A stretch of 10,263 bases of DNA from Candidatus Hodarchaeota archaeon. Its GTDB lineage: Archaea; Asgardarchaeota; Lokiarchaeia; Sigyniarchaeales; SOKP01. The position numbers were made by a program, and so were the translations under genes. The notes beneath the pieces are model-generated. The model had not been told where the DNA came from. It ran no database searches and saw only the letters and a list, made by a program, of their open reading frames with translations. Every line of letters starts with the position of its first letter. The stretch's first letter is position 1. The stretch is taken from assembly GCA_048887225.1 (NCBI GenBank), contig JBHLJY010000025.1:27112-37374 (forward strand). Reading direction: 5' to 3'. Positions 2 through 10,263 of the stretch are shown piece by piece.

Positions 2-3000
2 CCACAAGGTGATTGGGACTCATTAGGAAACGGTTCCGTTGTAATTATTGTTTACGCTAACGATACCCTTGGCAACTTAGGTTCGGCACAAGTAACAGTA
101 AGAAAAGATATAATTGCTCCATATATTATAATAGATTCACCAGAGAATAATATTTATTATGATGATGATGATCGTCCAATGATTAATATATCTGCATACG
201 ATTCAAACTTCGATTCAATCTGGTATATCATTGGAACAATTAAAATAATGCTAGAAAATAATATAGAAGAAGAAATTGACGCTTCAATCTGGAATAGCTT
301 AAAACAAGGGGAATTTTACGTTTATATTTACGCTAATGATACTCTTGATAACGTTAATGACACTTACGTGTTAATGTTATTTAAAGACACTTTAGCTCCT
401 ATATTAACAATTAATTCTCCAAATAATGGGAGTTATTATAATTATCAACCCATCATCAATGTAGCTGCCTTTGATCCGAATTTAGATGATATCTGGTATC
501 GAGTTAGCCAAGATCTAAATATAATAGGGCAAAAAATATTAGATAATAACAATACGGATGAGCCATTAAGACTAAATATTTGGGAAGGATTGGGGCAAGG
601 AGATTTTCAAATTGAATTTTGGGCAACTGATACTTTCAATAATATCAGCGACACTATTATTTTTAGCTTATATAAAGACACATTAGCACCAAAAATAGAG
701 ATTAATTCACCCAATAACCTGACTTATTGGAACACACCACCATCTATCAATGTTTCTGCCTTTGATCAAAAAATAAGTCAAATATGGTATAGAGTTTATT
801 CGACACTTACCGATTGGAGTGCTAATATAACGCTTATAAATAATACGGAAAAGTCATTTAATACTACTATCTGGAATAGCTTGGAACAAGGAGCTTTTCA
901 AATTTATTTTTATGCTAATGATTCCCTTGGGAATATGAGTGAAATTTCTATTTTAACTTTATACAAAGATACATTAATTCCTGAAATCACAATTAACTTA
1001 CCTATTAACGTGACTTTATGGAATACACCTCCGCCAATTAATATATCCGCTTCCGATCAGAAATTAAATAAAATTTGGTATAGAGTTCACATGGTATTTA
1101 ATAATTACTGGAGTGGTAATATAACGCTGACAAATAATACAGAACAGTTTTTTAACATTTCAATATGGTTATTCAGCTTACCGCAAGAATGTGAATTCCA
1201 GATTTTTATTTACGCTAATGATTCCGTAGGTAACATAAATGATATTTATGTATTAACTTTATATAAAGATGTTATAGCTCCAAGAATTACAATTGATGAA
1301 CCTGATCCGTACGATTTATTTGGAACTATAGAACCTAATTTTGATATTGTAAATGAAGATGCTAATTTAAATTCTTCATGGTATATATTAATTAATGAAA
1401 CAAATCCATTGGATCGTACAAATAAATATATATTGACAGGAGAAACTGGTACTATAAACCAAGCAGGATGGAACAGGTTTGAAAACGGTACAATAATAAT
1501 TAGATTTTATGCAAACGATACTTTAGGAAACGAGACTTATAGAGAAGTAATCGTTCGCAAAGATATTTATGCACCATTAATTACGATTTCTAATCCTGAT
1601 ATGTACGATGTATTTGGAATCATCGCCCCTAATTTCACCATATACATTGATGGTCCAGTGAATATGAGATGGTATTCGATATATAACGGATCTGATTGGT
1701 CAGAAAACTTCACTATTGCTGGAGAATTCGGTACAATAGAAGGAACAATCAACCAAACGGCATGGGATAGATGTGGAAACGGCACAGTTATAATTAAATT
1801 TTACATAAATGATACAGTAGGAAATATAGGATTCGCCTTTGTCACAGTAAGAAAAGACATATTTGCTCCTATGATTACGATTAATTTGCCAGAACTTAAT
1901 GTTTGGTTTAATAGCCCACCAACACTTAATGCCGAATGTTTTGATCCTAACTACCATACCTTATGGTATAGAGTCTATTCATCATCTTTAGGGTGGAGTA
2001 ATAATATAACATTAATGAATAACACAGATCAACTGCTTGATGGAGATATATGGAATTGGTTGGGGCAAGGAGAATTTAGAATTTATTTTTACGCTAACGA
2101 TACTGCTGGTAATCTTAACGAAACTTACCTAATATCATTTAAAGACACACGTGCGCCTAATCTTATAGTTAATTCACCCGAAGACGGATTATATTATAAT
2201 ACTCCTCCTCTTATCATTTGGTCTGCTTACGATCCAAATTTAGATGATGTCTGGTATTCTGTACCTGGTTTTGTTCCAATAGAATATCTTGAAAATAATA
2301 ATACAGAAGCTTTAAATGATACTTACTGGGAAGATTTAGATCAAGGAATGTTTCAAATAAATATTTACGCTGTGGATAGATTCAATAATGTTAGTTACCA
2401 AATTATAACATTATACAAAGATACGAGAGCACCTACTATAATAATTAATTCACCAGAAAATTTATCATATTGGAAGACAGCACCAATATTGGATATAATC
2501 GCCTATGATCCTAATTTAAATACTACTTGGTATGGGAACGGGACCCATAATTTCACTCTAACGTATATTGGACAAGAACTTGAGGCTTCAATATGGGATA
2601 ACTTACCACAAGGACCATTTATAATATATATTTACGCCAATGATACTTTCGGTCATATCAATGACATATTTCTTTTAATCTTATATAAAGATACAATAAT
2701 TCCTGAGATAACAATTATTTTACCTAGAAACGAATCGTATTGTAGGGTACCAATAGATATACATGTATCCGCATCTGATACAAACCTAAATACAACGTGG
2801 TATAGAGTTTATTCATCGTTTCTTGATTATTGGAGCGATATAATAACGCTAACAAATGATCAAGAACAGATGCTTAGTGCATCAATATGGAATATCTTAC
2901 CAGATGAAGAACCATTTCAAATATATATTTACGCTAACGATTCAGCCGATAACATAAATAATATTTATGCATTAACTATATATAAAGATGTTATCGCTCC

Positions 3001-4714
3001 AAGAATTACCATTAATATTCCTCACACAAATGATTTATTTGGAGCCAACGCTCCAGGTTTTGATATCACGATTATCGAGCCTAATTTAAACGCTACATGG
3101 TACTATTTAGTAAACACAACAAATCCGTCAGCTTTTACCGCTAACTACACATTTGTATATTTAACAGACTTTACAATTTTACAGAGCGTATGGGAACAGA
3201 TGGAAAATGGAACCGTAACGATTTACTTTTACGCAAACGACTCTGCAGGCAATATTGGGTTTAATGATATAACCGTTAGAAAAGATATTATTGCCCCTCT
3301 CATTATAATTAACCAACCCGAACAAACCGAGCTTTTTGGAGCTGACGCTCCGGATTTTGATATTACTATTGTCGAGCCTAATTTAAACGATTCATGGTAC
3401 TACTTAGTAAACGCAACAAATCCATCAGACTTTACCGCTAACTACACATTTGTATATTTAACAGACTTTACAATTTTACAGAGCGTATGGGAACAGATGG
3501 AAAATGGAACCGTAACGATTTACTTTTACGCAAACGACTCTTCGGGCAATAGTGGATTTAATGATATAACCGTTAGAAAAGATATTTATGCTCCAATAAT
3601 TACAATTATTGAACCTACTTCACTTGAATTTTATGGCATCAATGCCCCAACTTTTGAGATATCTATAAGTGGGATAGATATAAATACTACTTGGTATGTT
3701 TTAGTTGGCAACACAACTAAACATAAATTTACAGAAACGACTGGAACAATTAATCAATATGCATGGAACGGCTTTGGAAACGGATTTGTGAATATTCAAT
3801 TCTATATAAATGATACATCTAGTAATGAAAATTACCAGGATATATGGATCAGAAAAGATATTTCAGCACCAACTATTACGATAAATCTACCTATTAACGA
3901 TACTTATTGGGATACAGAACCACTTATCGAAGTAATCGTAATTGATAATTATGGTCCTATTAATATTGATTCTGTCTGGTATAGAGTCGGTTCAACTAAT
4001 AAATCATTAACACGTCAATCGCCAACAACTTGGAGCGAATTGTTTGATGGTTTGATATGGAATAACCTACCAAATGAAGGACTATTTCAAATTTACATTT
4101 ATGCAGAGGATTCTGTCGGGAATGTTAATGATACATATATGTTAACTTTATATAAAGATATTATTGCTCCAAGAATTACGATAGAATTACCAAATGAAGG
4201 TGATATAATTGGAAGGACGTCTCCTTTTTTTAATATTTCTATCCAAGAGGATAATAATTATACTTGTTGGTATACTATTGATGGGGGTAAAAATAATATA
4301 ACTTTCACCAAATTGGATGGAAGGATCGATTATGCTTTATGGGAAAATGTATGGGATAATTTATCCGTAAACTCTTATATTATAATCAGATTTTACGCAA
4401 AAGATATCGTTGGAAATATTAGTTATGCAGAAGTAAAAGTTATAAAGGGTTATTTTTATCAAACTATCATTGCCGATAATGGAGAAGATGATGGTGATGA
4501 TGAATCCGAAAGGAGTGAAATTTTATTTGGTCAAATTCCCCTGATTATTACTGGTATAGCAGTATGTATTATGATTCCTGTTTCTATAGCAATAAGAAAA
4601 AGTCGATTTTATCATTCTTACGAGAGAAAATATAAAAAAGCAATTAATAAGATTTTGTTTTTAGCTATATTCCTTTTAGTTCTAATCTTTTTAGCCTTTG
4701 CTTTCCATTTTTAA
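2..4714 (+). CDS. Giant membrane-anchored surface (glyco)protein with tandem Ig-like beta-sandwich repeats; 5'-partial, at least 1570 aa
   Basis: The frame of the 179..4714 ORF has no stop back to position 2 (PQGDWDSLGNGSVVIIVYANDTLGNLGSAQVTVRKDIIAP...), so Met 179 is internal. It contains 15 complete ~90-100 aa repeats plus one partial, with consensus KD-xxAPxIxIxxP...WY...IW...G...YAND(T/S)xGN...(L/V)xKD. It ends in an acidic linker (DNGEDDGDDESE) and two hydrophobic helices (4520-4594, 4652-4711) separated by a basic loop. Confidence 0.9.
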   Translation, partial: PQGDWDSLGNGSVVIIVYANDTLGNLGSAQVTVRKDIIAPYIIIDSPENNIYYDDDDRPMINISAYDSNFDSIWYIIGTIKIMLENNIEEEIDASIWNSLKQGEFYVYIYANDTLDNVNDTYVLMLFKDTLAPILTINSPNNGSYYNYQPIINVAAFDPNLDDIWYRVSQDLNIIGQKILDNNNTDEPLRLNIWEGLGQGDFQIEFWATDTFNNISDTIIFSLYKDTLAPKIEINSPNNLTYWNTPPSINVSAFDQKISQIWYRVYSTLTDWSANITLINNTEKSFNTTIWNSLEQGAFQIYFYANDSLGNMSEISILTLYKDTLIPEITINLPINVTLWNTPPPINISASDQKLNKIWYRVHMVFNNYWSGNITLTNNTEQFFNISIWLFSLPQECEFQIFIYANDSVGNINDIYVLTLYKDVIAPRITIDEPDPYDLFGTIEPNFDIVNEDANLNSSWYILINETNPLDRTNKYILTGETGTINQAGWNRFENGTIIIRFYANDTLGNETYREVIVRKDIYAPLITISNPDMYDVFGIIAPNFTIYIDGPVNMRWYSIYNGSDWSENFTIAGEFGTIEGTINQTAWDRCGNGTVIIKFYINDTVGNIGFAFVTVRKDIFAPMITINLPELNVWFNSPPTLNAECFDPNYHTLWYRVYSSSLGWSNNITLMNNTDQLLDGDIWNWLGQGEFRIYFYANDTAGNLNETYLISFKDTRAPNLIVNSPEDGLYYNTPPLIIWSAYDPNLDDVWYSVPGFVPIEYLENNNTEALNDTYWEDLDQGMFQINIYAVDRFNNVSYQIITLYKDTRAPTIIINSPENLSYWKTAPILDIIAYDPNLNTTWYGNGTHNFTLTYIGQELEASIWDNLPQGPFIIYIYANDTFGHINDIFLLILYKDTIIPEITIILPRNESYCRVPIDIHVSASDTNLNTTWYRVYSSFLDYWSDIITLTNDQEQMLSASIWNILPDEEPFQIYIYANDSADNINNIYALTIYKDVIAPRITINIPHTNDLFGANAPGFDITIIEPNLNATWYYLVNTTNPSAFTANYTFVYLTDFTILQSVWEQMENGTVTIYFYANDSAGNIGFNDITVRKDIIAPLIIINQPEQTELFGADAPDFDITIVEPNLNDSWYYLVNATNPSDFTANYTFVYLTDFTILQSVWEQMENGTVTIYFYANDSSGNSGFNDITVRKDIYAPIITIIEPTSLEFYGINAPTFEISISGIDINTTWYVLVGNTTKHKFTETTGTINQYAWNGFGNGFVNIQFYINDTSSNENYQDIWIRKDISAPTITINLPINDTYWDTEPLIEVIVIDNYGPINIDSVWYRVGSTNKSLTRQSPTTWSELFDGLIWNNLPNEGLFQIYIYAEDSVGNVNDTYMLTLYKDIIAPRITIELPNEGDIIGRTSPFFNISIQEDNNYTCWYTIDGGKNNITFTKLDGRIDYALWENVWDNLSVNSYIIIRFYAKDIVGNISYAEVKVIKGYFYQTIIADNGEDDGDDESERSEILFGQIPLIITGIAVCIMIPVSIAIRKSRFYHSYERKYKKAINKILFLAIFLLVLIFLAFAFHF
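110..4450 (+). repeat. Array of 15 complete Ig-like coding repeats (~270-300 nt each)
   Basis: Units start right after each KD codon pair at 110, 389, 680, 971, 1271, 1565, 1859, 2147, 2423, 2693, 2990, 3287, 3584, 3860 and 4160. Confidence 0.9.
2990..3583 (+). repeat. Recent 297-bp tandem duplication (repeats 11 and 12)
   Basis: 3134-3244 and 3431-3541 are identical over 111 bp at an offset of 297. The flanks are similar but diverged. Confidence 0.95.
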
Positions 4715-5953: not shown

Positions 5954-6475
5954 CTATGAATATAAAGAAAAATCGAAATCGGAAACAAATTGTTTAGATG
6001 ACATTTCTTTTCCCGAGCAAAACTCTTTTAATATTATTGTACTAAAAAGAAAACAGGAATATAATTTACGAATTCTTTTAAAAATAGAATTTTTTGAAAT
6101 TATTCCATCTTTTTTAAGAAATATTTGTTCGCTTATTTCGTATTTATAATTTTGGGCATCAATTCGAAAATAAATTTCTTTATTAATAAAATACTTACGT
6201 AAAAATGCAAAAAATTGAATTTTATCATTGTTTTTTAGTGAATCAAAAGTTTTAATTTCTTTTTTTGGCATTTGCGTTTGTAATGATAATATTATAGAAT
6301 CTTTATCCTTAAGTTTAAAAATAGTCATTCTATTACCTTTTGATCTTGGAGGATAAGAAAATATGAATCCAAATTCTAATTTAGAATCAGGATCAGGTAT
6401 TTTTTCTCTTAAAATCCCCTCATCTAACAAGTATTCTCGGATTAAATGCTCAATTTTACTTTTTTTCATTGACAC
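5954..6475 (-). CDS. DUF2299-family protein (conserved archaeal, function unknown)
   Basis: The N-terminus IREYLLDEG...EFGFIFSYPP, the later ISEQIF..DGIISKN.IFKRIRKL segment and the ~170 aa size resemble DUF2299 as recalled. The track start is GTG at 6475; ATG at 6469 is an alternative. Confidence 0.7.
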   Translation of the reverse strand: MSMKKSKIEHLIREYLLDEGILREKIPDPDSKLEFGFIFSYPPRSKGNRMTIFKLKDKDSIILSLQTQMPKKEIKTFDSLKNNDKIQFFAFLRKYFINKEIYFRIDAQNYKYEISEQIFLKKDGIISKNSIFKRIRKLYSCFLFSTIILKEFCSGKEMSSKQFVSDFDFSLYS

Positions 6476-6790
6476 TTCTAATCTGTAAATGAAAAAGAAT
6501 GTAATTTATTTATTCTTTTTTAATAGACAAAATTTTCTAGATAATTATTAATGATTTTTATTGTTTTTTATTAATTTTTAATATATTTGACCAACTCTTA
6601 ATTATGGTTCTTCTTGTTAATGTAACTATTAAATTAATTCTTTAATTTAAAAGATTATATTAATTTCTTTTTTCATTTTTTTCATAGGAGAAAATTGAAA
6701 AGACCATGTAAAGTATATTAATTATTATGTGATACATTAAATTTAAAAAAGTAATTGAATAATTTAACATAAGGGAATTTAATGTAATTT

Positions 6791-8803
6791 TTGATTAAGA
6801 TGGTATTGAATTTGCAAGAGGTTGGTGGTATTGAGAAGGCAACCATGGAAAAGATGAGAGCCATGGGAATAGATTCAGTTGAAAAACTAGCTTCAATCAA
6901 ACTTGAAAATTTATTGAAAATTAGTGGCATTGACAAATCTACGGCGATTAAATATATAACGAACGCTAATAAATTACTTGAAGAAATAAAAGACGACGTA
7001 ATTTCCAAAGGAGAAGAGCCAATTAGCAAAAAAGGAATTTTTGAAGATATTACTCCTATACAAGAACCAAAATTTCGAATTCCTAAAGGAAAAGAACCAA
7101 TAGACAACAAAGCAGTTTTTAAAGATATCACTTCTACGCAAGAACCAAAATTTCGAATTCTTAAAGTAAAGCAACCAAATGATAACAAAGCAGTTTTTGA
7201 AAAAAAAGTATCCTCTAAAGGAGAGATGCCACTAGATAAAAAAGTAAGAAGCCAATTGATAAAAAAATATTTAAGGAATATGCAAGAACCAAAGTTTCGG
7301 ACTCCTAAAGTAAAGGAGTCACACGATACAAAAATAGTTATTGAAAAAAAAGTTTTCCGTAAAGGAAAGGAGCCAATTGATAAAAAAGTAATTATTAAAA
7401 GAAAAGCCCCTTCTAAGTACAAAAAAATTCCTGAACAGTATAGTCCCTCTAAAGCAAAACCAATTAGAGAGGAAATACCTTCAAAAAAAAAACCTAAAAA
7501 GAAAAAAATTCAAGACACATTTTTTCCTCAAGAAATAATGCAAAAAATTCGGTTTTTACATTTTAAAATTAAGCATTTAGAAGAATTTTTACTAAAAGAA
7601 CATGAAGATATTGAATTAGAAGAGCTCAATTATGTATGGGATTATATAAAACTTTTAAATGTCAATTATAAAATTCAAAGTCAAATAAAGATTTTTAAAG
7701 AATTAGATCTTACAACGACCTTTTATGATCCTATTGAAAATAAATATATTAATATATGGGACATAATGTTTGAGTGTACTCGAGTGTTATGGGTGTTAGC
7801 AAGAGTCTATGCTCAACTTTCTGAAAAATATGAACTAGAGAACAATTTGAAAAACGCAACAATTTCGATGGTAGAATGTAGTAAAGCTTATAAAACTGCG
7901 GCACATTTTAGTGCTGCATGTACTCGTCAAGAAGATAAGGGGTTGTCCTTATCTTTTGACAATCTTGAATTGAATTCTGAAGAGGCCCGAATATTTGCCC
8001 AGAGCCTTGCTGCTACAAGAGAAGAAAATAAGAAAAACTTTTTTCTTGCGTCTAAAATGTATGCAGGTTTGAGTGCTTTATCAAAAAGATTGTCATATTT
8101 AAAGGAAAATGATAGCATAAGGAATTATCAATTAAGAGCTCAATCTAATTATGATCTAGGCAAAGCATATAATTTAAAAGCCACTGCAATATTAAAAGAT
8201 TCAGATTTAAATGAAAACGGAGAAAATATTAAGAGACTACGTCAAAAAGCTAACTATCTTTTCTCTAAGGCGGAGGGACTTTGGGAATTCATACGAGATA
8301 ATTTCAATGAACTTTCAAAAAGAGAATTGAATAATATAAGGATTAATTTATCTATTGTTAATGAAGATATTATTGAAAACGATGTAGAGATTCCAGATTT
8401 CGATAAAATTAAAGATATTGAAGAAATTGAGCCATTTATAGCAGTTCCGGAAAATGTAGCGCCTATTGTACCAAGAACTACAATGTATTTAACAAGCTAT
8501 GGTCCTAGAAATCTTGAATTTAATACATTCAAAGAATTTAAAAAGAAGAAATTAGAAACGAATTTTCGTTTAAGCAAAATAGAGAAATTACAAAATAAAA
8601 AAGCAGGAATCGGGCGAGTAATTAAAGAATTAAAAATATTAAATGAAAACAATGACATTGATATAAACACGTTTATTGAACTTTTGGAAAAATACTCGAT
8701 TGAACTCAAAATGGTTGAAAGCGCCATCGATAAATTAAAAAATCCTGATGAGAAGGCCAAAACGGTTAATAGCCAATTTAATAATATTACCGTGAAAAAA
8801 TAA
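6791..8803 (+). CDS. Multidomain protein: HhH (RadA-N/HHH_5-like), K/P-rich repeat linker, BRO1-like domain and C-terminal steadiness-box-like hairpin
   Basis: LQEVGGIEKATMEKMRAMGIDSVEKLA...LLKISGIDKSTA is a tandem HhH. aa ~241-570 align by eye with the BRO1 consensus and aa ~594-651 with the TSG101/Vps23 steadiness box. The track start is TTG 6791; ATG 6800 is an alternative. The CDS and HhH calls are secure; BRO1 and SB are inferred. Confidence 0.75.
   Translation: MIKMVLNLQEVGGIEKATMEKMRAMGIDSVEKLASIKLENLLKISGIDKSTAIKYITNANKLLEEIKDDVISKGEEPISKKGIFEDITPIQEPKFRIPKGKEPIDNKAVFKDITSTQEPKFRILKVKQPNDNKAVFEKKVSSKGEMPLDKKVRSQLIKKYLRNMQEPKFRTPKVKESHDTKIVIEKKVFRKGKEPIDKKVIIKRKAPSKYKKIPEQYSPSKAKPIREEIPSKKKPKKKKIQDTFFPQEIMQKIRFLHFKIKHLEEFLLKEHEDIELEELNYVWDYIKLLNVNYKIQSQIKIFKELDLTTTFYDPIENKYINIWDIMFECTRVLWVLARVYAQLSEKYELENNLKNATISMVECSKAYKTAAHFSAACTRQEDKGLSLSFDNLELNSEEARIFAQSLAATREENKKNFFLASKMYAGLSALSKRLSYLKENDSIRNYQLRAQSNYDLGKAYNLKATAILKDSDLNENGENIKRLRQKANYLFSKAEGLWEFIRDNFNELSKRELNNIRINLSIVNEDIIENDVEIPDFDKIKDIEEIEPFIAVPENVAPIVPRTTMYLTSYGPRNLEFNTFKEFKKKKLETNFRLSKIEKLQNKKAGIGRVIKELKILNENNDIDINTFIELLEKYSIELKMVESAIDKLKNPDEKAKTVNSQFNNITVKK
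7007..7390 (+). repeat. Degenerate coding repeats (QEPKFR x3; KGxEPIDxK-type x4) in the linker of the 670-aa protein
   Basis: CAAGAACCAAA(A/G)TTTCG occurs at 7061, 7139 and 7283 (offsets 78 and 144). 7139-7246 and 7283-7390 encode paralogous 36-aa blocks. Confidence 0.9.
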
Positions 8804-8850: not shown

Positions 8851-8910
8851 AAAATAATTTTTTAATAGCATAAATGATTGTATTAAATGAATATTAATAT
8901 TACTTTATTT

Positions 8911-8915
8911 GGAGG
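8911..8915 (+). promoter_or_regulatory. Shine-Dalgarno GGAGG
   Basis: GGAGG-CATAT-ATG(8921) in an otherwise very AT-rich spacer. Confidence 0.8.
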
Positions 8916-8920
8916 CATAT

Positions 8921-10263
8921 ATGTCTAAAAAACATGTAGTTTTTCTTAATGCTATTAAGAAATTTTGGTTTTTTCTAGTAATTGGAGTAGTACTCATAAT
9001 CTTTCTATTTAATAGAGAAATTTCAATATGGATTACGATTATTTTCTTGATAGCATTAATTTCATTTTATTTACCGTCTCTTTCATTTAAATCTAGATTA
9101 ATTCGATTTATGAATAAATATAATACAATCGAGGATAAAACGGTTGCTCTAAACTTTAAGCTCCCATTAGAGGATATTAAAGAAAAAATGAATAAATTGT
9201 ATAAAAGTCAGAAAAGGAAAAATTGGCTTATTATATTTTCAACCGATCGCTATATTTTCTTTCGGCAGGACACTATTAGAAAATTTAAAGAACTCTATTA
9301 TAATGGATACAATGAAAAACAAATTTTCGAAAATTTGAAAAAAGATATAAATATTAGGACTAGAGCTGAAATTAAAGTTATAATAGATACATTAAATAAT
9401 CTAAATAAACTCAAAGATATTAAAAAATTAAGAGAAGTAGCGGCCGCAAAACCGAAAAAAGCACCAAAACTGAAAAAAGCACTAAAACTGAAAAAAGCAC
9501 CAAAACTGAAAAAAGCACCAAAACTGAAAAAAGCACCAAAACCTAAAAAAGCACCAAAACCGAAAAAACTGCCAAAACCTAAAGAAATCGAGATAGAAAT
9601 GGCATTAAAAAAAGCGGACAAACTTCACATAAAACTAATGAGATTAGATAACAAATGGCAAAAACTTGACGAAAAATATCCGAAAGATTTAGAGAAAATT
9701 CAACAACACGGTGAGCCAATTCTAGAAGAAATGATGCAATATATTGACGAAATACAAAAAATAAATATAAAATCTTTAGCAGCAAAAAAAATAATCGATA
9801 GTTGGATTCGCACATATCAATCACGAAAGGTTGCTATTGAAGAATATCGAAAAAAGCGAAAAGAAGTTTTTAAAGATATATATAGTGAATCACATGAAAT
9901 AGAACAACAGCAACTAATTGAAAGGGCAACTCTTATCAAGCCTAAGGTACCAGGTGTTCCTAAAGTCGCTAAAAAAACAATTAAACCAATTGAAATAGCT
10001 ACTCTTGTCAAACCTAAGGTACCAAAAGCTAAAAAACCAATTAAATCAATTAAAATAGATGAGAAACAGCAATCTACATATGAAAAAGTGGATTTGGCTC
10101 AATATATAAAAAAAATTTCAAAAATTTCTATAAATCTAGAAGATCAAAAGCAAAATGAAATAACTATCACTTCAGATTTATTAGACGACAATGGGGAATT
10201 AATTCAAAGAGGATGGTCTCGAAAACCAATTCTAAATTACAATCGGGAAAAAATTAAAGCTGG
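8921..10263 (+). CDS. 3'-partial membrane protein (at least 447 aa): 2 TM, winged-helix-like region, K/P repeats, MIT-like domain and DUF2804 N-terminus
   Basis: Translated by hand: MSKKHVVFLNAIKKFWFFLVIGVVLIIFLFNREISIWITIIFLIALISFYLP... stays open to the window edge. It is absent from the track, presumably because it has no stop in the window. Strong SD. The final segment QNEITITSDLLDDNGELIQRGWSRKPILNYNREKIKA (from 10151) matches the recalled DUF2804 N-terminal pattern QxEIT...LLDxxGxL...GW(A/S)RxP.L.YNR..IKA. Confidence 0.88.
   Translation, partial: MSKKHVVFLNAIKKFWFFLVIGVVLIIFLFNREISIWITIIFLIALISFYLPSLSFKSRLIRFMNKYNTIEDKTVALNFKLPLEDIKEKMNKLYKSQKRKNWLIIFSTDRYIFFRQDTIRKFKELYYNGYNEKQIFENLKKDINIRTRAEIKVIIDTLNNLNKLKDIKKLREVAAAKPKKAPKLKKALKLKKAPKLKKAPKLKKAPKPKKAPKPKKLPKPKEIEIEMALKKADKLHIKLMRLDNKWQKLDEKYPKDLEKIQQHGEPILEEMMQYIDEIQKINIKSLAAKKIIDSWIRTYQSRKVAIEEYRKKRKEVFKDIYSESHEIEQQQLIERATLIKPKVPGVPKVAKKTIKPIEIATLVKPKVPKAKKPIKSIKIDEKQQSTYEKVDLAQYIKKISKISINLEDQKQNEITITSDLLDDNGELIQRGWSRKPILNYNREKIKA
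9449..9583 (+). repeat. 18-bp tandem repeat, 7.5 copies, encoding K(P/L)KKAP
   Basis: Consensus AAACTGAAAAAAGCACCA. Units read KPKKAP KLKKAL KLKKAP KLKKAP KLKKAP KPKKAP KPKKLP KPK; units 3-5 (9485-9538) are identical. Confidence 0.97.
9926..10060 (+). repeat. Imperfect 2-copy coding duplication (72-nt offset)
   Basis: ATLIKPKVPGVPKVAKKTIKPIEI versus ATLVKPKVP----KAKKPIKSIKI; both copies contain CCTAAGGTACCA. Confidence 0.85.

Follow-up and report, generated by a model that had tools for sequence, protein, structure and literature searches.

A probable Vps23-type steadiness-box hairpin behind a predicted Bro1-fold domain in a Lokiarchaeial protein family

In eukaryotes, ESCRT-III is reached by two upstream routes, one through ESCRT-I/II and the other through Bro1-domain proteins such as ALIX. 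Proteins of the second kind are themselves linked to ESCRT-I: the PSAP motif of ALIX binds the UEV domain of TSG101, and the coiled coil of HD-PTP binds UBAP1. ESCRT-I is held together by the steadiness box, a two-helix hairpin that acts as a protein-protein assembly module. The 2024 archaeal ESCRT survey describes many multidomain steadiness-box proteins of Asgard archaea, for which docking onto ESCRT-I was proposed, and reports that Bro1/ALIX is not identifiable in these organisms (Makarova et al., 2024, PMC10936438). Here, we analyze an Asgard protein family in which a hairpin of this type stands behind a domain with a predicted Bro1 fold, a pairing that is unseen in eukaryotes. No paper describing the family was found in the literature searched, nor was the family found in the available part of the supplements of Makarova et al. 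(2024), among the entries for HhH/TPR-steadiness-box proteins.

The gene lies on the forward strand at positions 6791–8803 of the window, that is, of the whole stretch of 10,263 nt that was analyzed. The source of the protein is a Lokiarchaeial Asgard archaeon. According to the list of open reading frames and the translation, the gene encodes, in this order, an HhH module, a repeat linker, the Bro1-fold domain and the steadiness-box hairpin. The protein has 670 aa if counted from TTG 6791 and 667 aa from ATG 6800; the latter is the probable start codon and is used by a 100% identical database record of 667 aa (P0003). In a database search, more than 500 Asgard homologues were retrieved, which are named only “helix-hairpin-helix domain-containing protein”. 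The N-terminal (HhH)2 module (aa 7–53, 6809–6949) just reaches the Pfam HHH_5 threshold (27.1 bits, cut-off 27) and resembles the N-terminal domain of RadA/Rad51 (1pzn_A, E 0.0045). It is followed by a linker rich in Lys, Pro and Glu (about aa 65–238, 6983–7504), which contains a tandem repeat at 7003–7198 (period 78 nt, 2.5 copies, 83% matches; Tandem Repeats Finder) and varies in length between homologues. The Bro1-fold domain (aa 242–562, 7514–8476) precedes the hairpin, and the protein ends with a poorly conserved tail (aa 652–670, with the stop codon 8744–8803) that is variable in the alignment and has a pLDDT below 50 past aa 654 (residues 416–431 of the long AF2 model).

In the AF2 models, the hairpin consists of helix 1 (aa 575–619, 8513–8647; residues 336–380 of the long model, 2–31 of the isolated model), a turn with the sequence NNDID (N620–D624, 8648–8662) and helix 2 (aa 625–650, 8663–8740; residues 386–411 and 37–62, respectively). 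Modeled in isolation, the two helices are antiparallel and the confidence is high (pLDDT 94.6), and the same hairpin recurs in the 431-residue model. The last 27 or so residues of helix 1 correspond to the first steadiness-box helix, and the ID..F motif begins at the turn (family consensus NNDIDIxxF). A sequence-only reading of this DNA had assigned a steadiness-box-like hairpin to positions 8570–8743 (+); the 58-residue string that it quoted is the exact translation of aa 594–651, and the homologous core as delimited by hhalign, the A2 HMM (see below) and Foldseek extends over aa 593–651 (8567–8743). That reading had named a continuous coiled coil as the outcome that would speak against it, and the predicted turn at N620–D624 breaks the helices. 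The hairpin is retained in all full-length homologues aligned, even at 22–24% identity.

In a structure comparison by Foldseek, the 12 best of 350,542 PDB chains all belong to the ESCRT-I headpiece (TM 0.80–0.86, rmsd 0.6–1.4 Å), with E-values of only 0.06–0.7 and with scores that draw on sequence as well as structure. Superposition with VIA-align gave nearly the same Z for Vps23 (10.3), an OST1 domain (10.4) and CdvA (10.0), and many unrelated hairpins scored above 9. By itself, the geometry of the modeled hairpin is thus generic. A remnant of the ALIX V domain was also considered and rejected, as V-domain chains were absent among the 50 best Foldseek matches and the listed VIA-align matches, which is an absence rather than a proof; full-length ALIX (2oev) superposes over the Bro1 part only.

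The assignment to the steadiness boxes depends on sequence comparison at the level of the family. The TSG101 sequence that the sequence-only reading had used agrees with chain 6vme_B as aligned by HMMER. The ungapped pairwise alignment of this sequence with the hairpin has 10 identities and 23 positives in 58 positions and a BLOSUM62 score of 15. With the register kept fixed, 10 of 20,000 shuffles scored as high; with free offsets within ±10, 84 of 5,000 did. As a comparison of two sequences, the TSG101 match is suggestive, short of decisive. A separate line of evidence is the profile comparison between a family profile of the hairpin (A2, 26 members) and a profile of the steadiness boxes of Asgard UEV-Vps23 proteins (A3, 30 segments), whose members are proteins with a UEV domain, a coiled coil and a box. 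With hhalign, the two matched at 96.4% (P 1.1e-9), and columns 5–63 of A2 aligned with columns 15–73 of A3, that is, over 59 columns and in the gap-free register that had been proposed. The score of this match was 47.9, compared to 15.1 for the reversed template and at most 16.4 for 60 column-shuffled templates. That A3 represents genuine Vps23 boxes is indicated by its PDB matches, with E-values of 2.4e-6 for TSG101 (6vme_B) and 1.5e-4 to 4.6e-4 for yeast Vps23 (2p22, 2caz, 2f66), and weaker ones for Vps28 (0.19) and VPS37B (0.43). In the converse direction, the A2 HMM scored 28 of the 30 A3 segments, including every Vps23-type one, at 9.4–37 bits (27 at ≥14 bits). In addition, four Asgard genomes without the family were searched with the family profile (E ≤ 1e-5), and each contained a matching Vps23_core-type protein of 244–257 aa (E 3e-7 to 7e-6). 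Three of the genomes had no other hit, and the fourth had one further, weaker hit; the layout of UEV, coiled coil and box was seen in three of these four proteins. The hairpin also matched the box of the Znr_PH_CC_SB protein in the same register (46%). For the Vps28 hairpin, the value was as low as 0.5%.

Several results speak against the assignment. On the protein and its C-terminus, Pfam yielded no match to Vps23_core, Mod_r, VPS28, CdvA or SHOCT at E ≤ 1. Vps23_core (PF09454) matched one of the 26 family hairpins (E 0.048), below the gathering threshold of 26.8 bits, and a search of the organism's own genome with this model did not list the hairpin locus. The A3 HMM found the hairpin in the window's protein with a domain E of 0.0085 (single sequence) and a negative full-sequence score, and it did not retrieve it at E ≤ 1 in a genome-wide search; other family members obtained 15–22 bits, compared to which the window's protein scores low. 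The A2 profile did not retrieve ESCRT-I chains from the PDB sequences at E ≤ 10. Taken together, the homology is strong at the family level, and we regard the hairpin as very probably a genuine steadiness-box homologue.

The identification of the preceding domain rests on its AF2 model (pLDDT 85). Foldseek returned Bro1 domains for all of the 21 best hits (E 7e-6 to 1.5e-4). VIA-align superposed residues 3–323 of the model on HD-PTP, BROX, ALIX and yeast Bro1 over 275–299 residues (Z 20.4–22.5, rmsd 4.0–5.0), and the next unrelated fold followed at a Z of 12. The window's protein had no match to Pfam BRO1 (PF03097), and the distant family member P0155 came close to the threshold (33.3 bits, cut-off 35.1). 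As modeled, the domain preceding the hairpin is a Bro1 fold, and the Z of 22.5 bears out the covalent link between hairpin and Bro1-like domain that the sequence-only reading had proposed. Two groups of proteins turned out not to be helpful in this context. Bro1-only relatives of 510–520 aa from another Asgard family are uninformative on the role of the hairpin because they contain an acidic repeat and their C-terminus is of another kind. The “Bro1” homologues of Eme et al. (2023), as far as the entries examined are concerned, are short PF18097 proteins distinct from this family.

Compared to the described systems, the hairpin is closest to the ESCRT-I Vps23 core (PF09454; 6VME, 2F66, 2CAZ, 2P22; Asgard UEV-Vps23), with which it shares the C-terminal two-helix architecture of about 60 residues, the register and the turn motif I-D-x-x-x-F/Y. 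It differs in that it follows a Bro1 fold instead of a UEV domain and a coiled-coil stalk, its first helix is about 18 residues longer at the N-terminal side, and it falls below the Pfam threshold. Znr_PH_CC_SB (asCOG cog.011556) likewise combines a steadiness box with domains foreign to ESCRT-I in a fusion specific to Asgard archaea, whereas the domain fused here is a Bro1 fold. In ALIX/PDCD6IP, HD-PTP and yeast Bro1, the Bro1 fold is also followed directly by a helical module; in the family described here, a single steadiness-box hairpin occupies the place of the V/coiled-coil domain of ALIX and HD-PTP, and the proline-rich tail is absent. Any link to ESCRT-I would thus be covalent and mediated by the box, in contrast to the ALIX–TSG101 interaction in trans.

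Within the taxonomic family to which the window belongs, all 25 genomes sampled contained the protein family. Genomes carry one to three paralogues; a paralogue in the genome analyzed here is P0178, with 412 aa. No UEV domain or UEV-Vps23 was matched anywhere in the 98%-complete genome from which the window derives. The protein itself was rejected as a Vps23/TSG101 orthologue, as its upstream parts are HhH, repeat linker and Bro1 fold, and UEV and coiled-coil stalk are absent. The genome encodes Vps28 (P0176) and a Znr_PH_CC_SB protein (P0177, C2:1666–3672), the box of which matches the Vps23 profile at 96.2%. In addition to Vps4 and ESCRT-III, it also encodes ESCRT-II (EAP30 45.5 bits, Vps25 50.5 bits); therefore, a bypass of ESCRT-II, as envisaged in the sequence-only reading, is not demanded by the gene content. 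The two ESCRT-III proteins (P0350 and a protein of 213 aa at C14) have acidic C-termini with MIM-like helices. ESCRT genes were not found nearby at three Loki-type loci (in three genomes) or at two loci of distant homologues.

The best explanation for these observations as a whole is that a Vps23-type box, fused behind a Bro1 fold, joins an ESCRT-I-like assembly, to which we assign a probability of roughly 55%. The docking onto ESCRT-I that was proposed for other Asgard steadiness-box proteins speaks for it; the value of 0.5% for the Vps28 hairpin, the lack of ESCRT neighbors, the ESCRT-II genes and the lack of a UEV-Vps23 match in the genome speak against it. Building on the fold of the hairpin, its homology to Vps23 boxes, the Bro1 fold and the conserved fusion, all of which the comparisons above show, the mechanism may be envisaged as follows. 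The hairpin would pack alongside like hairpins and thereby anchor the Bro1 protein in an ESCRT-I-like assembly, with the N-terminal hairpin of Vps28 and the Znr_PH_CC_SB box as candidate partners in this genome. The Bro1 domain could in turn bind ESCRT-III, and a polyanion, for example, DNA, might be bound by the HhH head together with the basic linker. That the hairpin forms a heteromeric headpiece with Vps28 or with a different steadiness-box protein is a tentative proposal to which we give somewhat less than an even chance, and every binding step in it is conditional. A three-chain prediction with Vps28 (1–100), the Znr_PH_CC_SB box (585–655) and the hairpin, each supplied with an alignment, reached 0.01 compared to a mark of 0.32; being uncontrolled, it speaks neither for nor against binding.

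The choice between hetero- and homo-assembly is one that we infer, and the strongest rival explanation is that the hairpin is a self-association module that dimerizes or polymerizes the Bro1 protein, like the ALIX V domain or CdvA filaments, without ESCRT-I subunits. We consider this unlikely, albeit a serious competitor. The hairpin sits where ALIX carries its V domain, the gene is unlinked to ESCRT-I genes, and the one to three paralogues per genome could pair mutually. Moreover, the polymerizing hairpin of CdvA is similar: the filament of S. islandicus (9s9g_A) superposes on it over 65 residues (Z 10.0, rmsd 1.2 Å), and Pfam CdvA (PF18822) has matches below the threshold in six of the 26 members (best E 0.0053). 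A similarity of CdvA to the steadiness box had already been detected with HHpred, as reported by Makarova et al. (2024, PMC10936438). However, the profile similarity is clearly higher to the Vps23 boxes, which are heteromeric modules, than to the Asgard CdvA-like profile (96% versus 67%; for the latter P 5e-5, 38 columns). The likeness to CdvA that had been noted from the sequence is supported as a more distant one, and it fits a common superfamily, not membership in CdvA. The hairpin protein has neither the PRC barrel nor the ESCRT-III-binding tail.

A second rival, which we judge to be quite improbable, holds that the hairpin is a generic SHOCT/CdvA-like one, with a turn shared by convergence or very deep ancestry, so that the link to ESCRT-I would be unspecific. 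SHOCT and CdvA (PF18822; 9S9G/9S9I) have the hairpin geometry and the turn motif in common with the hairpin, as well as a weak profile similarity, and the motif “hydrophobic-x-G/N-x-I-x3-F/Y” is also common to steadiness boxes. The Pfam matches below the threshold are scattered among CdvA (6 of 26), SHOCT (PF09851, a model of 28 positions; 4 of 26, best E 0.0039), DUF1707 (2 of 26) and Vps23_core (1 of 26). Among the PDB sequences, the profile scores best with an unrelated repeat that shares the turn motif, and similar C-terminal hairpins exist elsewhere in the genome, for example, in an ORF of 482 aa (C2:216869–218317). Against this reading, the hhalign match to the Vps23 box extends over the full 59 columns with a P of 1e-9, while the matches to SHOCT and CdvA-like sequences are shorter and weaker (4e-4 and 5e-5), and the first 12 Foldseek hits are exclusively ESCRT-I chains. 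The sequence-only reading would have been contradicted by a match to SHOCT alone; the value for the Asgard SHOCT sequences was 35% (P 3.9e-4, 43 columns), compared to 96.4% for the Vps23-box profile. The Vps23 box itself scores equal values against the SHOCT (35%) and CdvA-like (67%) profiles. These results support the view that the hairpin is nearest to the Vps23-type boxes, with the CdvA and SHOCT hairpins being more distant.

Least likely of all is an intramolecular regulator that folds onto the Bro1 domain and, for example, masks the ESCRT-III-binding surface until release: ALIX is autoinhibited via intramolecular contacts, and a flexible linker of low confidence precedes the hairpin (model residues 330–336, pLDDT < 50), but the model gives no contact information, and steadiness boxes are not known to regulate in this manner.

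A conserved Asgard protein with both modules, the Bro1 fold and the Vps23-type assembly hairpin, would imply that precursors of both upstream routes existed before eukaryotes arose, and that these routes may originally have formed one physical unit. The hairpin makes this idea testable, as it points to the N-terminal part of Vps28 and to Znr_PH_CC_SB as concrete candidate partners. In a wider version, which we regard as speculative and improbable, Lokiarchaeia would have an ESCRT-I-like headpiece with the Bro1 protein as a subunit beside Vps28 and Znr_PH_CC_SB; upstream recognition would thereby be hard-wired to ESCRT-III, the fusion would be a covalent, possibly ancestral version of the ALIX–TSG101 link, and the HhH paralogue with its membrane neighbor would form a tether between DNA or another polyanion and the membrane. 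The Znr_PH_CC_SB protein is described as membrane- and ubiquitin-reading in this version, and division or vesicle-budding sites are named as examples of where such a tether could be located.

The membrane neighbor is the conserved, co-oriented downstream gene (8909–10261, +), which encodes two membrane-spanning segments and runs off the window. It represents genomic context and a possible partner, outside the hairpin. In the window, it bears a long Lys/Pro linker, and it is 42% identical, over 152–158 aa, to the gene that immediately follows the orthologue downstream in each of two further genomes (E-values of 2e-28 and 6e-41).

The hairpin (window 8570–8743, + strand) encodes exactly the 58 residues singled out in the sequence-only reading, that is, aa 594–651 of the open reading frame at 6791–8803 (+), which specifies 670 aa from a TTG start; the protein database holds the 667-aa form that begins at the ATG at 6800. 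The genome (3.27 Mb, 98% complete, about 28% G+C; the window lies on contig 25) is that of an Asgard archaeon of the Promethearchaeota/Lokiarchaeia type. The only domain of the protein recognized by Pfam is an N-terminal HHH_5 module (aa 7–53), which is followed by a Lys/Pro/Glu-rich repeat linker that includes a tandem repeat with a period of 78 nt (7003–7198, 2.5 copies) encoding units of the 'EPKFRIPKGKEPIDNKAVFKDIT' type. A 234-aa antisense ORF over this repeat (6718–7422) is probably a repeat artefact. For aa 240–670, an AlphaFold2 model with a mean pLDDT of 85 was obtained from an alignment of 26 sequences. Its residues 3–323 (aa 242–562) adopt a Bro1 fold: all 21 best Foldseek matches were Bro1 domains, and VIA-align yielded Z scores of 20.4–22.5 to HD-PTP, BROX, ALIX and yeast Bro1, compared with 12 for the next unrelated fold. 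A low-confidence linker and then two helices (aa 575–619 and 625–650) follow in the same protein, so that the proposed fusion of the hairpin to a BRO1-like domain holds.

In direct pairwise comparison, the match of the hairpin to TSG101 (6vme_B, as printed by HMMER) was modest, with 10 identities in 58 positions and a score that was equalled in 10 of 20,000 shuffles in fixed register and in 84 of 5,000 with free offset. Therefore, profiles were used. The family profile was built from the aligned hairpins of 26 members, including three 400-aa homologues at 22–24% identity. The reference profile comprised 30 Asgard segments, drawn from 151 Asgard genomes, that match Pfam Vps23_core, mostly above the cut-off. 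Five of the six source proteins of about 220–260 aa examined at full length have the UEV-coiled-coil-box architecture of Vps23 orthologues; the set also includes two Vps28-type hairpins, one Vps23-Vps28 fusion and one differing 243-aa architecture (locus L042). Against PDB sequences, the reference profile recovered TSG101 (6vme_B, E 2.4e-6) and yeast Vps23 (2p22, 2caz, 2f66), with E values of 0.19 for Vps28 and 0.43 for VPS37B. When the two profiles were compared with hhalign, they aligned with 96.4% probability (P 1.1e-9) over 59 columns without gaps, in the register originally proposed; the score was 47.9, versus 15.1 for the reversed template and at most 16.4 for 60 column-shuffled templates.

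Among the rival hairpin sets, the Asgard CdvA-like set came closest to the family profile (67%), followed by Asgard SHOCT (35%), and the match is not to SHOCT only; the Vps23 box itself gave identical values with both sets. A continuous coiled coil does not fit the AlphaFold2 model of the isolated hairpin (pLDDT 94.6), in which two helices meet at a turn at N620–D624. In profile comparison, the match of the hairpin to Vps28 was insignificant. The Znr_PH_CC_SB protein of the genome was confirmed as box-bearing (96.2% to the reference profile), and the hairpin matched its box at 46% without a change of register.

Plain HMM searches were in agreement but asymmetric. The hairpin HMM scored 9.4–37 bits on Vps23-type boxes, with at least 14 bits for all but one. 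Across the 151 Asgard genomes, the whole-family profile matched a Vps23_core-matching protein of 244–257 aa in each of four genomes without a family member (E 3e-7 to 7e-6). In three of them this was the sole match at E ≤ 1e-5 and in the fourth the better of two; the three of these four proteins that were examined are UEV-Vps23. In the opposite direction, the outcome of the Vps23 box HMM varied by member: some scored 15–22 bits, the window's own protein reached a domain E of only 0.0085, and its hairpin was not listed at E ≤ 1 in the genome-wide search. The family also stays below the Pfam Vps23_core threshold, and the hairpin profile alone found no ESCRT-I chain among PDB sequences.

The 12 best Foldseek matches of the hairpin among 350,542 PDB chains were all ESCRT-I headpiece chains, namely yeast Vps23 and Vps28 and chains of the human 6vme headpiece including TSG101 (TM 0.80–0.86, rmsd 0.6–1.4 Å), yet with E values of only 0.06–0.7. 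Exhaustive geometric comparison did not discriminate, with Z scores of 10.3 for Vps23, 10.0 for CdvA and more than 9 for many unrelated hairpins. The top geometric match (Z 10.4) was the cytoplasmic domain of Ca. Prometheoarchaeum syntrophicum OST1/ribophorin I (PDB 8whn_A), which also matches the Asgard Vps23 box profile weakly (E 0.22); therefore, an archaeal oligosaccharyltransferase subunit may bear a steadiness-box-like hairpin.

On the combined evidence, we consider the hairpin a true steadiness-box homologue, with a probability of roughly 0.85. The observation of such a hairpin on a Bro1-fold protein is confirmed, and the homology suggested by the sequence-only reading is supported. The architecture is new, with a known assembly module placed where eukaryotic Bro1 proteins bear the V domain. 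According to Makarova et al. (2024; PMC10936438), many Asgard multidomain proteins bear a steadiness box; no published description of a Bro1-steadiness-box fusion was found in the literature searched. The Bro1 homologues mentioned by Eme et al. (2023) were considered as members of the family and rejected, as the entries consulted there are short PF18097 proteins of a different family.

The family is present in all 25 sampled genomes of the window's taxonomic family; outside it, the search of 151 genomes returned just Bro1-only relatives or hairpin-only matches. In two loci of another Asgard family (L109, 1804–3339; L110, 5840–7372), proteins of 510–520 aa match the Bro1 part only (E 1e-20 to 1e-22); in place of the hairpin they have a C-terminal domain of another kind, together with an acidic (EDAVEV)n repeat. 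A 412-aa paralogue in the window's genome (P0178; contig 7, 53519–54757; locus L013, 3520–4758) consists of the Bro1 fold and the steadiness-box hairpin only, without the HhH head, and its gene is adjacent to, and divergent from, an ATP-grasp_3 gene. The same ATP-grasp neighbour adjoins the genes for P0154 and P0155, which are distant homologues of 400 aa; an Arf/Ras-like GTPase is encoded near them. Therefore, the short form may be older, and the HhH form may be a Loki-specific derivative.

Possible partners encoded in the genome are Vps28 (P0176) and the Znr_PH_CC_SB protein (P0177), whose gene is separated from that of an ESCRT-III protein by about 1.1 kb containing a single unrelated gene. 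These three genes are located outside a compact ESCRT cluster on contig 14 (about 23300–26700) that comprises Vps22-like (EAP30), Vps25, Vps4 (MIT + AAA) and a second ESCRT-III gene. No UEV domain was found anywhere in the 98% complete genome. The hairpin protein might take part in headpiece assembly and bypass ESCRT-II, as had been proposed; since ESCRT-II is present, the gene content requires no such bypass. A further candidate for a hairpin-bearing partner is encoded on contig 2 (216869–218317; locus L111, 1370–2818): this protein of 482 aa has a Lys-rich linker and a terminal steadiness-box/SHOCT-like hairpin, which matches the Asgard Vps23 box profile with E 9e-4.

No ESCRT genes are among the conserved neighbours of the hairpin gene. 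Upstream, a giant surface protein with Ig-like repeats and a membrane anchor at its C-terminus (window 2–4714, +) is encoded here and in both other genomes examined, and a DUF2299 protein (5954–6475, −) here and in one of the two. Directly downstream, a conserved, co-oriented gene for a small protein with two membrane segments (8909–10261, +) runs off the window. Its product is 42% identical to those of the 169–171-aa downstream genes in the two other genomes and is extended here by a Lys/Pro-rich linker, which is built from an 18-nt tandem repeat (9447–9583, 7.6 copies), and by further domains, with a weak DUF2804 match at its end.
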